Assembly (NCBI RefSeq): GCF_002854065.1
Contig: NZ_CP024147.1
Direction: 5' to 3' (one strand)
Length of the DNA stretch: 64,000 bases
Source: Escherichia coli
GTDB taxonomy: Bacteria > Pseudomonadota > Gammaproteobacteria > Enterobacterales > Enterobacteriaceae
Of this stretch, positions 58,855-64,000 are shown in pieces (positions within the stretch are counted from its first letter, which is position 1; every line of letters starts with the position of its first letter). The notes under the pieces are model-generated. The model saw nothing but the letters and a program-made list of their open reading frames with translations, was not told the origin of the DNA and did not search any database. The translations under genes and the position numbers were made by a program.

Positions 58855-58965
58855 TTATACATATCACTCTAAAATGTTTTTTCAATGTTACCTAAAGCGC
58901 AATTCTTTGCTAATATGTTCGATAACGAACATTTATGAGCTTTAACGAAAGTGAATGAGGGCAGC

Positions 58966-60471
58966 ATGGAAACCAAAGATCTGATTGTGATAGGTGGCGG
59001 CATCAATGGTGCTGGTATCGCGGCAGACGCCGCTGGACGCGGTTTATCCGTGCTGATGCTGGAGGCGCAGGATCTCGCTTGCGCGACCTCTTCCGCCAGT
59101 TCAAAACTCATCCACGGTGGCCTGCGCTACCTTGAGCACTATGAATTCCGCCTGGTCAGCGAGGCGCTGGCTGAACGTGAAGTGCTGCTGAAAATGGCCC
59201 CGCATATCGCCTTCCCGATGCGTTTTCGCCTGCCACATCGTCCGCATCTGCGCCCGGCGTGGATGATTCGCATTGGTCTGTTTATGTACGATCATCTGGG
59301 TAAACGCACCAGCCTGCCGGGATCAACTGGTTTGCGTTTTGGCGCAAACTCAGTGTTAAAACCGGAAATTAAGCGCGGATTCGAATATTCTGACTGTTGG
59401 GTAGACGACGCCCGTCTGGTACTCGCCAACGCCCAGATGGTGGTGCGTAAAGGCGGCGAAGTGCTTACTCGTACTCGTGCTACTTCTGCTCGTCGCGAAA
59501 ACGGCCTGTGGATTGTGGAAGCGGAAGATATCGATACCGGCAAAAAATATAGCTGGCAAGCGCGCGGCCTGGTTAACGCCACCGGCCCGTGGGTGAAACA
59601 GTTCTTCGACGACGGGATGCATCTGCCTTCGCCTTATGGCATTCGCCTGATCAAAGGTAGCCATATTGTGGTGCCGCGCGTGCATACCCAAAAGCAGGCC
59701 TACATTCTGCAAAACGAAGATAAACGCATTGTGTTCGTGATCCCGTGGATGGACGAGTTTTCCATCATCGGCACCACCGATGTGGAATACAAAGGTGATC
59801 CGAAAGCAGTGAAGATTGAAGAGAGTGAAATCAATTACCTGCTGAAAGTGTATAACACGCACTTTAAAAAGCAGTTAAGCCGTGACGATATCGTCTGGAC
59901 CTACTCCGGTGTGCGTCCGCTGTGTGATGATGAGTCCGACTCGCCGCAGGCTATTACCCGTGATTACACCCTTGATATCCATGATGAAAACGGCAAAGCA
60001 CCGCTGCTGTCGGTATTCGGCGGTAAGTTGACCACCTACCGCAAACTGGCGGAACATGCGCTGGAAAAACTGACGCCGTATTATCAGGGCATTGGCCCGG
60101 CATGGACGAAAGAGAGCGTGCTGCCGGGTGGTGCCATTGAAGGCGACCGCGACGATTACGCAGCTCGTCTGCGCCGTCGCTATCCATTCCTGACTGAATC
60201 ACTGGCGCGTCATTACGCACGCACTTACGGCAGCAACAGCGAGCTGCTACTCGGCAATGCGGGGGCGATAAGCGACCTCGGGGAGGATTTCGGTCATGAG
60301 TTCTACGAAGCGGAACTGAAATACCTGGTGGATCACGAATGGGTCCGCCGCACCGACGATGCCCTGTGGCGTCGCACAAAACAAGGCATGTGGCTGAATG
60401 CGGATCAACAATCTCGTGTGAGTCAGTGGCTGGTGGAATATACGCAGCAGAAGTTGTCGCTGGCGTCGTAA
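58966..60471 (+). CDS. glpD: Aerobic glycerol-3-phosphate dehydrogenase GlpD (501 aa)
   Basis: Start METKDLIVIGGGINGAGIA (FAD fold). Confidence 0.97.
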   Translation: METKDLIVIGGGINGAGIAADAAGRGLSVLMLEAQDLACATSSASSKLIHGGLRYLEHYEFRLVSEALAEREVLLKMAPHIAFPMRFRLPHRPHLRPAWMIRIGLFMYDHLGKRTSLPGSTGLRFGANSVLKPEIKRGFEYSDCWVDDARLVLANAQMVVRKGGEVLTRTRATSARRENGLWIVEAEDIDTGKKYSWQARGLVNATGPWVKQFFDDGMHLPSPYGIRLIKGSHIVVPRVHTQKQAYILQNEDKRIVFVIPWMDEFSIIGTTDVEYKGDPKAVKIEESEINYLLKVYNTHFKKQLSRDDIVWTYSGVRPLCDDESDSPQAITRDYTLDIHDENGKAPLLSVFGGKLTTYRKLAEHALEKLTPYYQGIGPAWTKESVLPGGAIEGDRDDYAARLRRRYPFLTESLARHYARTYGSNSELLLGNAGAISDLGEDFGHEFYEAELKYLVDHEWVRRTDDALWRRTKQGMWLNADQQSRVSQWLVEYTQQKLSLAS

Positions 60472-60534
60472 ATTAACGTAAGGTGATCAGGTCAGATTTC
60501 AATCTGGCCTGAGACTGATGACAAACACAAAATT

Positions 60535-60630
60535 GCCTGATGCGCTACGCTTATCAGGCCTACGTGGTTTATGCAATATGTTGAATTTGCATGATTTTGT
60601 AGGCCTGAGAAGGCGTTCACGCCGCATCAG
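60535..60630. repeat. BIME: two REP units in inverted orientation (GCCTGATGCGCTACGCTTATCAGGCCTAC and GTAGGCCTGAGAAGGCGTTCACGCCGCATCAGG)
   Basis: REP consensus recognised downstream of glpD. Confidence 0.75.
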
Positions 60631-60684
60631 GAATGAACAAAGTGCACTTTGTCAACAATCTGACCTACTTTTTGAGTCAGAGAA

Positions 60685-61287
60685 TTACCGCAAAGCCCAC
60701 GCCATCATACCCAACGTAACAAAACTCAGGCACGTTCCCCACTCACTCCACTTCCGTATCTGGCTTCTATTTTTGCTACGCCACTGGCAATAATATCCCA
60801 ACGCAAAACCAAGCTGTGCGCTTATTGGACCGATAAAATCCGTCCACGGCTGAGGCCAAAATGGCGAAAAATTCAGGGGTAGCCAGACAACAAGCAGAAA
60901 GAAATTGCGGATACTTTCCAGCAACGCAATTTTCGCTGGCGCGATGTAAAAAATGATATTCCAGAGGATCAACCATAAATAGACCGGTGCGAATACCAAC
61001 CAACAATGGAGCCTGCTTTTCAATTCAGATTGAGTTCTACGAGTAAATTGCCAACCAACGCAACACATTACACAGAAGAAAAGCGCATATTCAGCCGATA
61101 ACCAAAGTTGTAATTGCAGAAGTGAAATACGCCTGATCATGAGCGGGATTGAGAACAGCATTTCCCCCAGAAAACTCAGCGTGATAATACAAGCAGCCAG
61201 CGCAACCACCATCGGCCACACCAACAACGGCACAATAACAAAGCCGAGAAATAACGGATAAATATAAAGTCTGATTATATTCATCAT
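60685..61287 (-). CDS. Uncharacterised multi-pass membrane protein (200 aa), paralogous to the N-terminal domain of the 505-aa protein upstream
   Basis: ORF 200 aa, mostly hydrophobic; start ATG overlaps upstream stop (TAATG); shared segments with 62305..63822 N-terminus. Confidence 0.75.
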   Translation of the reverse strand: MMNIIRLYIYPLFLGFVIVPLLVWPMVVALAACIITLSFLGEMLFSIPLMIRRISLLQLQLWLSAEYALFFCVMCCVGWQFTRRTQSELKSRLHCWLVFAPVYLWLILWNIIFYIAPAKIALLESIRNFFLLVVWLPLNFSPFWPQPWTDFIGPISAQLGFALGYYCQWRSKNRSQIRKWSEWGTCLSFVTLGMMAWALR

Positions 61288-62279
61288 TATTGTCCTGATG
61301 ATTCGGGGGATGCTTCATACAGCAGCACATACCCCACATCCTCTACCAACTGTTGCCCCTGCTGACTTATAAACCAGTCAACAAATTTCTGCGTTTCCGG
61401 CGTGGGATTTTCACGCGTCACCATATAGGCATCCACAATGTATGGATAAGTGCCGTTGCGGATATTTTCCTCGGTAGGCGCAACGCCATTTATAGCCAAA
61501 AGTTTAATCTGCTTGCGCATTTTGAGCATATTGTCATTCATACGAGTGACGTAATAGTGGAAGGTGTACCCAATGGAAGATGGCGTGTTTTGATAGTCGG
61601 CAACTTCAGTAATTAAACCGCCCATAAGATCAATCACAGTAGATTTTTTAGCTGGCAGCATTGGGGTGTCTTGCATAACCAATCCCTTCATAATCGTTTG
61701 GCTTCCAGAATCTTCAGGGCGCTGCCAGACTTTTATATGTTCGTCACTACCACCTACTTTATTCCAGCGGCTAGTTTTGCTGCTAAAAATATCTTTAACC
61801 TGGTGCTCAGAGAGAGAATTTACCGGGTTATTAATATCAACGATAAAGACAAAGGCTTCGCGGGCGAAAGCGGTATATTTCAGTTTAACACCCGCTTCTT
61901 CTGCACGTTTTTTCTGTCCTTCCGACGGTTGTGCAACAAAAATAACCGTCGCGGAACCTTTAATCAGACTATCGTAGGCTTCAGCTGTTCGGGTTTGCTG
62001 CAAACCATACGCCTGCCAGGCCAGCGAGGTTCGATCCTTATCTTTTGGCTCGGGTACTAATTTATAATACGCGGAGGCATACAGCGGGTATAAGGCTGTA
62101 GCGCCGTACACTCTCGGCCATCTTGACCAATCATCGCTGTAACGTAATGCAGGTTGCCCCCGCAGAGACGTCAGTCCATGGCTCTCTTCTTCCCTGACGC
62201 TGTTATAGTACCCTTCCCGGTCGACACATCCCGCCAGTAACGCCGTGCCTAATAGTAAAACACCGGTGAATTTATTCAT
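61287..62279 (-). CDS. Uncharacterised lipoprotein with PstS-like (PBP_like_2) phosphate-binding-protein-family domain, about 330 aa; start at MNKFTGVLLLGTALLAGC
   Basis: Lipobox LLAGC; motifs QRPEDSGSQT, IGYTFHYY, APTEENIRNG resemble PstS DGSGTSF / GAIGYVEY / SPTEENF; ORF-track start at 62342 would overlap the upstream gene. Confidence 0.8.
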   Translation of the reverse strand: MNKFTGVLLLGTALLAGCVDREGYYNSVREEESHGLTSLRGQPALRYSDDWSRWPRVYGATALYPLYASAYYKLVPEPKDKDRTSLAWQAYGLQQTRTAEAYDSLIKGSATVIFVAQPSEGQKKRAEEAGVKLKYTAFAREAFVFIVDINNPVNSLSEHQVKDIFSSKTSRWNKVGGSDEHIKVWQRPEDSGSQTIMKGLVMQDTPMLPAKKSTVIDLMGGLITEVADYQNTPSSIGYTFHYYVTRMNDNMLKMRKQIKLLAINGVAPTEENIRNGTYPYIVDAYMVTRENPTPETQKFVDWFISQQGQQLVEDVGYVLLYEASPESSGQ

Positions 62280-62304
62280 CTCGCTGATTCCTTTCTCTCG
62301 AGCG

Positions 62305-63822
62305 TTATTCCATTGTTGGATACAGCGGCACATATCCCACATCTTCTACCAGACTCTGCCCCTGCGGCGTTAAAAACCATTCGACCAGTTTTTGTGTTTC
62401 TGACGTTGTATTTTCCCTCGTTACCATAAAGGCATCGACGATATAGGGATATTTGCCGTTGCGAATATTTTCCGCAGTCGGTGTAATACCGTTAATCGCT
62501 AGCAGTTTTATATTTTTATCAGCATTCATTTGCGTCGCGTAATAGCGGAAGGTATAGCCTATTGCGTTGTTTGTATTACGGTATTCGGCAACGACTTTAA
62601 TCATTCCCTCCATCACGCTTGCCACTTCCATTTCCTGCGGCGAGATCATGCGGACATTTTTCATGACCTGTGATTGCATCACTGTCTGGCTGCCAGAGTC
62701 TTCCGGGCGCTGCCAGGTCTGGATCTCCTGATCGTTACCGCCAACAGTACGCCAGTTGGTAATTGCACCACTGAAAATGTCACGCACCTGTTGTTCAGTC
62801 AGGGAATTAACCGGATTATCCGCATTGACGATGAAAACGAATGCTTCACGGGCAAAGGGGGTGTACAGCAAAGTGACACCAGATTCCTTTGCACGTTTTT
62901 TTTGCCCACCGGAAGGTTGCGCCACGAAAATAATATCAGCATCGCCCTTAACGATTTTGTTATATGCTTCTGGCGTACGAGAGTTTTCCAGATAATCCCA
63001 AACGTGAAAATCCTCTGGTATTACACTTAATGCATAAAATGCAGAAGCATAAATTGGGTACGCAGCCGTGGCGCCATCGATTCGCGGCCAGTTTTGCCTA
63101 AACTGAATTTGCGGTTTGCCACGCAGCGGCGTCAGTCGATTATTGAGTTTATCGGGTTGCCAGGCCCAGATATCAATATTTTCGCGTACACCGACACCAG
63201 GATTGAGCTGTTTATATAAATAACCCTGATAACCAGCGACAAAACCAAGCATGAGAAGGATAAACAGGAGGGAATTACGGCAACGTAGCCCGGATGTACC
63301 GGTTAAAGGATGTCTGGTTGGCCGGCCGTACCCCAGCGAAAAACTGATATGCGCGCCAACGGGTATAATGACTATCCACCAGTACTCACCTCCGACTACT
63401 GAGACTAACAAAACGCCCAGCCAGGGGAGCATAAGATCAGCCAACCAACCCGATCCCATCTGGTGAAATTGATAATCTGCCAGATGCAGCGCGATTATCC
63501 AGCCAACCAGGATTAATAAAGCGGGTACTAAAAAAAGACATTGTCGCCAGACGGCTATTTCTCTTTTTTCTGGTGCACTATCGCCTGCCCATACTCGCCC
63601 CGAGAAAAATAGCATTAATGCGCCCAGCGCCAGCATAAAAATGTTGAGCAGAAGGTAAATTGTTGGCGTGATAAGGATATTACAAACTTCAATAATACCG
63701 GCAAGTCCGACACCCAGCATAGCAACAACCGCCGCCAAAAATTGCGTCAGTATGGGGATGCCGAAAAAAGTCATTACCAGCGAGGACAAAATCCATTTTC
63801 TGTTTTGCATTATTCTTTCCAT
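62305..63822 (-). CDS. Uncharacterised fusion protein (505 aa): N-terminal multi-pass membrane domain plus C-terminal PstS-like periplasmic binding domain
   Basis: First about 215 aa hydrophobic; C-terminal domain paralogous to the downstream lipoprotein (QRPEDSGSQT, IGYTFRYY, TPTAENIRNG); -10-like TATAAT 18 nt upstream. Confidence 0.8.
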   Translation of the reverse strand: MERIMQNRKWILSSLVMTFFGIPILTQFLAAVVAMLGVGLAGIIEVCNILITPTIYLLLNIFMLALGALMLFFSGRVWAGDSAPEKREIAVWRQCLFLVPALLILVGWIIALHLADYQFHQMGSGWLADLMLPWLGVLLVSVVGGEYWWIVIIPVGAHISFSLGYGRPTRHPLTGTSGLRCRNSLLFILLMLGFVAGYQGYLYKQLNPGVGVRENIDIWAWQPDKLNNRLTPLRGKPQIQFRQNWPRIDGATAAYPIYASAFYALSVIPEDFHVWDYLENSRTPEAYNKIVKGDADIIFVAQPSGGQKKRAKESGVTLLYTPFAREAFVFIVNADNPVNSLTEQQVRDIFSGAITNWRTVGGNDQEIQTWQRPEDSGSQTVMQSQVMKNVRMISPQEMEVASVMEGMIKVVAEYRNTNNAIGYTFRYYATQMNADKNIKLLAINGITPTAENIRNGKYPYIVDAFMVTRENTTSETQKLVEWFLTPQGQSLVEDVGYVPLYPTME

Positions 63823-63892
63823 TCTTTCTGAATGGCGAAATTATACTCCCCGAGTCCCCTTGCCCCTTCTGGACACTTTTCCGAAATGATGG

Positions 63893-63921
63893 CGAAAAAA
63901 ACGGGACCCTTTGGCCCCGTT
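63893..63921 (-). terminator. glgP intrinsic terminator (minus strand AACGGGGCCAAAGGGTCCCGTTTTTTT)
   Basis: Hairpin followed by T7 immediately downstream of the glgP stop. Confidence 0.7.
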
Positions 63922-63937
63922 CTATTTATTGGTGAAA

Positions 63938-64000
63938 TTACAATCTCACCGGATCGATATGCCAGATATGATCAGCGTACTCTTTGATAGTACGGTCAGA
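63938..64000 (-). CDS. glgP: Glycogen phosphorylase GlgP, 3' end only (…SDRTIKEYADHIWHIDPVRL)
   Basis: Partial ORF running off the window; C-terminal sequence recognised. Confidence 0.8.
   Translation of the reverse strand, partial: SDRTIKEYADHIWHIDPVRL

Follow-up and report, generated by a model that had tools for sequence, protein, structure and literature searches.

Activator-dependent sigma-70 promoters, such as those that depend on PhoB, on MalT or, in class II, on CRP, pair a good and conserved -10 hexamer with a -35 position that is non-consensus and variable. They also carry a conserved element at a fixed distance upstream. In promoters under PhoB control, the Pho box normally takes the place of the -35 element. 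An arrangement of this kind was found downstream of glgP, which encodes glycogen phosphorylase in E. coli, ahead of an accessory cluster of three genes that, like glgP, lies on the minus strand. This intergenic segment (63823-63937, 115 bp) was analyzed as part of a 64-kb stretch of E. coli DNA, which is called the window throughout. Read along the minus strand, the elements follow in the order terminator, conserved block, 28-bp G-rich spacer, TATAAT hexamer, a predicted leader of ~23 nt and the ATG at 63810. From this anatomy we propose that the cluster is most likely transcribed from its own sigma-70-type promoter, in which the -10 hexamer is combined with an upstream block that would replace the -35 element and the start would lie near A63833. 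We hold this reading with moderate confidence. RNA polymerase would use TATAAT as a sigma-70-type -10, and the missing -35 would be offset by the block, either through an activator or through contact with the alpha subunit of RNA polymerase. Transcription starting near A63833 would give a leader of about 23 nt that contains a GGAAAG ribosome-binding site. Such a promoter is ordinary in kind.

The last 5 kb, at the end of the window, correspond to the stretch from glpD to glgP of E. coli. Of glgP itself, the window contains the 3' end (63938..64000, minus strand; stop codon TAA at 63940..63938), which was identified from the sequence and from the RefSeq annotation of identical or near-identical loci. 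Gene 1 of the cluster (62305..63810, minus strand) begins 127 nt past glgP and encodes a 501-aa protein in which an N-terminal multi-pass membrane region is fused to a PstS-like domain (PF12849, E = 1e-30). It is followed on the minus strand by gene 2 (61287..62279), which encodes a 330-aa PstS-like lipoprotein (PF12849, E = 1e-28; PGAP), and by gene 3 (60685..61287), which encodes a 200-aa membrane protein that is annotated as a hypothetical protein and gave no family match. The layout is that of a packed operon, with 25 nt between genes 1 and 2 and with the start of gene 3 overlapping the stop of gene 2. A reading of this DNA made from the sequence only had named the transcription unit the glpD-glgP operon. 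This name is wrong, since glpD (58951-60471, plus strand) is convergent on the cluster from the opposite strand, and glgP is a separate upstream gene with its own terminator. The GC content of the cluster is 43-49%, versus 50-57% in its neighbours. Between glpD and gene 3 there are REP/BIME-type repeats (60492-60660), and part of this region matches many sites in every E. coli genome. It contains an Rfam ES036 (CssrF) match at 60556-60598 (39.3 bits) and a weak naRNA4 match.

The two PstS-like proteins are related to each other, with gene 2 58% identical to the C-terminal domain of gene 1. Against the PstS subfamily model TIGR02136 they score 123 bits (gene 1) and 113 bits, compared to a cut-off of 206.6, and no pst permease or ATPase genes adjoin the cluster. 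Judged in this way, the products of genes 1 and 2 are unlikely to be ordinary phosphate-uptake binding proteins, since their scores are far below the PstS cut-off and the pst neighbours are missing. A possible homology between the membrane region of gene 1 and gene 3 was considered and dropped, as it was not significant (E about 2-3).

The gene 1 family is spread across Enterobacterales. Neighbours of the PstS-like homologues include a PPK2 gene in Leclercia, purB and phoPQ on either side in Rahnella, and the type VI secretion (T6SS) gene tssM directly before the homologue in Intestinirhabdus. The set of genes that separates glgP from glpD is highly polymorphic. The type seen in the window (gene 1, the PstS-like lipoprotein and the 200-aa protein) occurs in its intact three-gene form in 882 of 5426 genomes, while other E. 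coli have gene 1 followed by two unrelated hypothetical proteins. DUF4279-like and YbbD_head proteins come after gene 1 in Klebsiella and Salmonella, and some loci hold two or three gene 1 paralogues in tandem.

The first element past glgP is an intrinsic terminator (63895..63923, minus strand), detected both by RNA folding and as an inverted repeat (I1). Its stem is formed by AGAACGGGGCC and GGUCCCGUUUU around an AAAG loop, and the stem is followed by a U7 tract at 63901..63895. The 11-bp stem folds with -17.1 kcal/mol (z = -2.8), and the hairpin and U-tract lie 15-45 nt beyond the glgP stop codon, so that 63895-63923 has the GC-rich hairpin and U-tract after a stop codon that mark an intrinsic terminator. 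A simple consensus terminator scan did not include it in its output. The terminator is kept in all Escherichia, in K. oxytoca, in one Salmonella locus (L024) and in Phytobacter. One stem pair in Phytobacter has changed from G-C to A-T in a compensatory manner (GGAGCC/GGCTCC), and in E. albertii a G.U pair has become G-C. In an RNA-seq transcript compendium, the table for the glg operon ends at glgP. Read-through from glgP is unlikely to be the main input to the cluster, since this terminator is strong and conserved, and it is unlikely to be the only input, since the same promoter module is found behind other genes in Salmonella.

The proposed -10 hexamer is a perfect TATAAT (6/6) at 63845..63840 on the minus strand, where it had been reported before. 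It was said to lie 18 nt upstream of the first ATG (63822..63820); 17 nt separate the two, and the figure of 18 reflects a counting convention. TATAAT occurs 12 times on both strands of the 64-kb window, and any given start has a chance of ~0.5% of being preceded by one within 50 nt. The sequence GGAGTATAATT is invariant in every Escherichia allele read with the segment intact, including that of O157 at 88% identity; the sole exception is HUM3355, in which IS1 takes the place of all that follows the G-rich spacer. Klebsiella, Salmonella and Phytobacter carry TATACT, TATCAT or TATAAT at the same offset, so that T1, A2, T3 and T6 are invariant across four genera. These are mostly the positions of greatest weight in the -10 element. 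The conservation of the hexamer supports the earlier proposal that the promoter region of the cluster lies here, on the minus strand after glgP, with TATAAT as its -10. On these alignments, TATAAT is very likely the genuine -10 of a promoter that is probably activator-dependent.

The remark that no obvious -35 could be seen was borne out. No hexamer near TTGACA was found: AAGGGG at the 17-bp spacing matches 1/6, and the best match, GGGGCA at a 15-bp spacing, is 3/6 and falls in a region that is variable among taxa. An extended -10 (TGn) is also absent, as GGGAG precedes the hexamer in Escherichia and GCT, GTT or AGG elsewhere. A -10 element with neither a -35 nor a TGn is a weak promoter. A consensus promoter scan did not call the TATAAT site, which has no -35. 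Its only nearby call, TCGCCA-18-AATAAT, has its end at 63809 and was rejected because of its overlap with the start codon.

Upstream of the hexamer, the alignments revealed a conserved block, TTTCGGAAAAGTG (63874..63886, minus strand), at -53..-41 from the predicted start, which is a putative contact site for an activator or for the alpha-CTD. In Escherichia it extends to ATTTCGGAAAAGTGTCCAG (63887..63869, minus strand), and over 13-19 bp (about -53..-36) it is nearly invariant in 12 Escherichia sequences. The 13-bp form, TTTCRGAWAARTG, is kept by Escherichia, Klebsiella, Salmonella and Phytobacter alike, with the -10 following 27-28 bp downstream. It reads TTTC[AG]GA[AT]AA[AG]TG in K. oxytoca and in the three Salmonella loci (L014, L017 and L024), while Phytobacter keeps the core TTTCAGAAAA and has CAA at the end (TTTCAGAAAACAA). 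The block is unique in the window at 0 mismatches. Between it and the hexamer lies the G-rich spacer (63846..63873, minus strand; 28 nt), as defined by alignment, which overlaps the 3' end of the extended block and spans the position where a -35 would be. Its length is constant and its sequence is variable. The G-rich spacer was also considered as a G-quadruplex, which was rejected because there are only three G-runs and they are unconserved. The upstream block and its 27-28 bp spacing are new beyond the sequence-only reading, as are the inverted repeat and the tandem 8-mer of the leader described below.

Conservation was examined at two depths. The Escherichia alignment contained E. coli alleles of different phylogroups and down to 88% identity (K-12-like, 118, O157, 4/0, LH85a and others), together with E. 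albertii, E. whittamii and two cryptic-clade genomes. In the intergenic segment 69% of columns are invariant, while in the genes on either side the same taxa keep 48-53% of third codon positions unchanged, which argues that the segment is under purifying selection. Among these close relatives, conservation exceeds the neutral expectation only moderately. The 96-bp candidate promoter segment (63805-63900) is single-copy. Of 5426 complete E. coli genomes, 4636 contain it, K-12 included, and 1810 genomes are identical to the window over these positions.

The second depth was across genera, in a small set of about six independent lineages. Homologues with 50-54% amino-acid identity to gene 1 were found in K. 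oxytoca, at three Salmonella loci and in Phytobacter, mostly in the glgP–glpD interval. They share one layout (block, 27-28 nt, TAT..T, ~30 nt, ATG), while the spacer sequence diverges. In two Salmonella loci the module is present without glgP upstream, behind an Fe-ADH gene in L014 and behind a 174-aa ORF in L017. The strongest argument that the module would be gene 1's own promoter is this retention behind genes other than glgP. The block and -10 motif were absent from the distant homologues in Budviciaceae, Rahnella and Leclercia. The called start of the gene at L014 4001-6109 (517 aa) lies upstream of the block and -10 module, and since the start precedes the module this gene is probably over-extended by about 15 codons.

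A similar correction applies to gene 1 itself, which has two in-frame ATGs, at 63822 and 63810, the former opening a 505-codon ORF. The 505-aa start assigned before is probably wrong: the cross-genus alignment fixes the start at the second ATG, 63810, which is conserved across genera and gives 501 aa, and PGAP starts the gene there or at an adjacent ATG. The upstream ATG of K. oxytoca is followed by a stop after three codons (ATG AGC GAA TAA). From the usual distance between -10 and +1, transcription is predicted to start at the A at 63833 (minus strand), 7 nt after the hexamer, which by arithmetic corresponds approximately to U00096.3 position 3,564,028 on the minus strand. Counted in the same way from the left end of glgP (3,564,134), TATAAT occupies 3,564,040-3,564,035. 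The leader carries two further repeats. A repeat search found the inverted repeat CCATTC-AGAAA-GAATGG (I2; 63819..63835, minus strand), which overlaps the predicted start and the first ATG and may act either as an operator or as a small hairpin at the 5' end of the transcript. The second is a tandem copy of the 8-mer GAAAGAAT with a 9-nt period (63812..63828, minus strand; direct repeat family D3), which holds the Shine-Dalgarno-like GGAAAG 7 nt before the ATG at 63810. It is this duplication that gives rise to two in-frame ATGs, at 63822 and at 63810. The 5' arm of the dyad has an alternative partner in strain 118, where it can pair with the second tandem copy.

The sequence-only reading had also drawn attention to a 9-bp direct repeat, and its two plus-strand copies of ATGGCGAAA are present as described, at 63832-63840 and 63889-63897. 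The repeat does not stand as a functional feature, since it is unconserved among strains with an intact locus. On the minus strand, the proximal copy (63832..63840) reads TTTCGCCAT and runs from the last T of the -10 through the predicted start, and the distal copy (63889..63897) is the last TTT of the terminator T-tract plus CGCCAT. The distal copy is replaced by CGCCTTTAT in E. coli 118, O157, 4/0 and LH85a, in E. whittamii and E. albertii, and in SCPM and E1V33, and in K-12 it is broken by an extra C. At the proximal copy, K-12 and E. albertii have TTTCACCAT, and E. coli 118, O157 and the strain E1V33 have TTCCGTCAT. The copies therefore vary independently, and strains with an intact locus have one, the other or neither (4/0 has only the proximal copy and FDA944 only the distal one). 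Only a single group of E. coli alleles and one strain from a cryptic clade carry the repeat, and it is absent from the Klebsiella, Salmonella and Phytobacter modules. The 9-mer occurs 6 times in the window. Exact 9-mer pairs at most 100 nt apart number 58 in the window, compared to about 25 in Markov shuffles, or roughly 0.1 per 115 bp. The repeat is a chance match with no role, since the distal copy is T-tract plus CGCCAT, each copy changes without the other between strains, and the window contains 58 pairs of this kind. A 51-codon plus-strand ORF (63832-63987) has its start at the proximal 9-mer and also spans the distal copy, and both copies read Met-Ala-Lys within it. This ORF is antisense to the promoter, the terminator and the end of glgP and is almost certainly spurious, and it shows that ATGGCGAAA is a common coding-like word.

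Several explanations other than a dedicated promoter were weighed. The cluster could have no promoter of its own and be expressed by glgP read-through alone, with TATAAT and the block conserved for some other reason or by slow drift. The cluster lies on the glgP strand only 127 nt downstream, the -35 is absent, the promoter scan calls nothing at the site and the literature yielded no start site for gene 1. However, the terminator is strong and conserved and has undergone compensatory change, the module of block, 27-28 nt and TAT..T is retained at Salmonella loci without glgP upstream, the hexamer positions retained across genera are T1, A2, T3 and T6, and the compendium's operon table stops at glgP. 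We therefore regard expression by read-through alone as rather unlikely. A second possibility is that the conserved elements act mainly as RNA, with the 63819-63835 hairpin stabilizing the mRNA or masking the ribosome-binding site. As RNA, the leader dyad of the window has a stem of -6.9 kcal/mol (z = -4.0). Hairpins of -4 to -6 kcal/mol are found at the same place with different sequences in Klebsiella and Salmonella, and K. oxytoca, with the dyad TCATC-GCAGG-GATGA, differs from E. coli in three stem pairs that are changed on both sides. Nevertheless, RNAalifold found no consensus structure among the leaders, the z-scores are weak in most lineages, Phytobacter has no hairpin, and a start at A63833 would leave only 4 bp of the stem transcribed. 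Against Rfam 15, nothing in 63000-64000 reached E <= 1, and ES036 and the weak naRNA4 near 60556-60653 were the sole matches. Since a role for the RNA leaves the upstream block and the hexamer unexplained, it would add to the promoter reading and not replace it, and as the main explanation we think it quite improbable.

The same elements were also considered as sites for particular regulators. That the two copies of ATGGCGAAA (or TTTCGCCAT) are paired regulator sites bracketing a promoter is suggested by their exact 9-bp identity, by their position 57 bp apart on either side of the block and -10, and by the presence of both in the commonest E. coli allele, that of the 1810 identical genomes. 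Given a pair frequency at chance level, a distal copy made of the terminator T-tract and 6 nt, either copy changing alone in intact loci (4/0 and FDA944), different sequences in 118, O157, E. albertii and E. whittamii, and no repeat in the modules of the other genera, this explanation appears extremely improbable. A promoter dependent on PhoB through a degenerate Pho box would suit the PstS-like products, which belong to the PstS superfamily; moreover, a Leclercia homologue adjoins a PPK2 gene, and the block includes AAAAGTGTCC, which by our own comparison resembles the AAAA-CTGTCA part of a Pho box. Against this, CTGTCATAWAWCTGTCAY had no match at <=3 mismatches, the genera do not share the second half-site, the block sits about 13-15 bp further upstream than a Pho box should, and the proteins fall far below the PstS cut-off with no adjoining pst permease or ATPase genes. 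PhoB dependence is accordingly judged to have a slim chance. The statement that there is no Pho box held up, as two CTGTCAT repeats with an 11-bp period gave 0 matches with <=3 mismatches in the whole window.

Motif scans for PhoB, CRP and CpxR sites were all negative in the region: neither the CRP site TGTGA-N6-TCACA nor the CpxR box GTAAA-N5-GTAAA was matched with <=2 mismatches in 63823-63937. The consensus of the UP element is nnAAAWWTWTTTTnnnAAAnnn at -59..-38. The block (TTTCRGAWAAR, -53..-41) is A/T-rich and agrees at ~5/14 consensus positions in a by-eye alignment, and its conserved C and G are atypical. The consensus sequences for sigma-54, sigma-E, sigma-32, MalT, marbox regulators, Cra, OmpR, PhoP, IHF and Fis, as well as the UP element, were compared by eye with the block and the G-rich spacer, and nothing was consistent across genera. 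A near-marbox in the block and spacer has its spacing off by one base, and MalT-like GGGG..GAGG strings lie at -33..-23, not at -37.5, and are unconserved. Tentatively, and with a fairly low probability in our estimation, TTTCRGAWAARTG would be the operator of an activator that controls membrane-tethered PstS-like proteins and their variable small partners.

The K-12 pseudogene yzgL (b3427) is the same locus. The terminator, the block, TATAAT and the leader are all retained there, followed by codons 1-73 of gene 1. Compared to the window, 2,852 bp (60741-63592) are deleted, with GAGT microhomology at the flanks, and the deletion fuses gene 1 after codon 73 with the 3'-terminal 56 nt of gene 3, which are no longer in the gene 3 frame. 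On arrays in K-12, yzgL gave a measurable signal with a 2-fold Cpx-dependent change (PMC2731931), and this response may be indirect. Judging by gene order, STM3527 is the gene just downstream of the Salmonella homologue, and it was among genes co-regulated with SPI-2/PhoP-type genes (PMC2639726). On the tentative operator reading, the PstS-like system may be tied to envelope or virulence regulation, as yzgL is Cpx-responsive and STM3527 clusters with SPI-2/PhoP-type genes. Conway 2014, Kim 2012, ROSE 2023, Cappable-seq 2016, Tjaden 2023, EDL933 2023, Romero 2014 and Term-seq 2022 yielded neither a mapped transcription start nor a terminator efficiency for yzgL or glgP, the one usable item being the operon table that stops at glgP.

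This small region, gene 1 included, has been hit repeatedly by insertion sequences (L010 4056-5513; L028 1539-2300; L002 3850-4610). In FDAARGOS_944, IS4 interrupts the hairpin of the glgP terminator and is accompanied by a duplicated target of 12 bp, GGCCAAAGGGTC. In HUM3355, IS1 lies in the G-rich spacer and most of the cluster has been lost, and CUWW06 has IS1 inside gene 1 and is otherwise 100% identical to the window.

The analysis provides an annotation for an intergenic segment found in about 85% of complete E. coli genomes, comprising a terminator, candidate promoter elements, a predicted transcription start and a corrected start codon. In K-12, yzgL is a widely used neutral insertion locus, yet it appears to keep the conserved promoter. 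The upstream block offers a handle for finding the regulator of this highly polymorphic cluster, which encodes PstS-like membrane proteins and occupies the hotspot between glgP and glpD in Enterobacteriaceae. The direct value of these results is small, and they neither open nor close a major question.

Set beside known systems, the glgP segment resembles other compact terminator-promoter spacers between same-strand gene pairs, in which the next promoter elements likewise begin within about 10 nt of the T-tract. It is unusual among them only in that its T-tract plus CGCCAT mimics the sequence 3' of the -10. From the known activator-dependent sigma-70 promoters it differs in the position of the block, which is centred near -47 to -49 as opposed to -35 or -41.5, and in the sequence of the block, which does not match the Pho box, CRP or CpxR consensus or, by eye, that of MalT or the marbox, and which agrees with the UP element consensus at ~5/14 positions.
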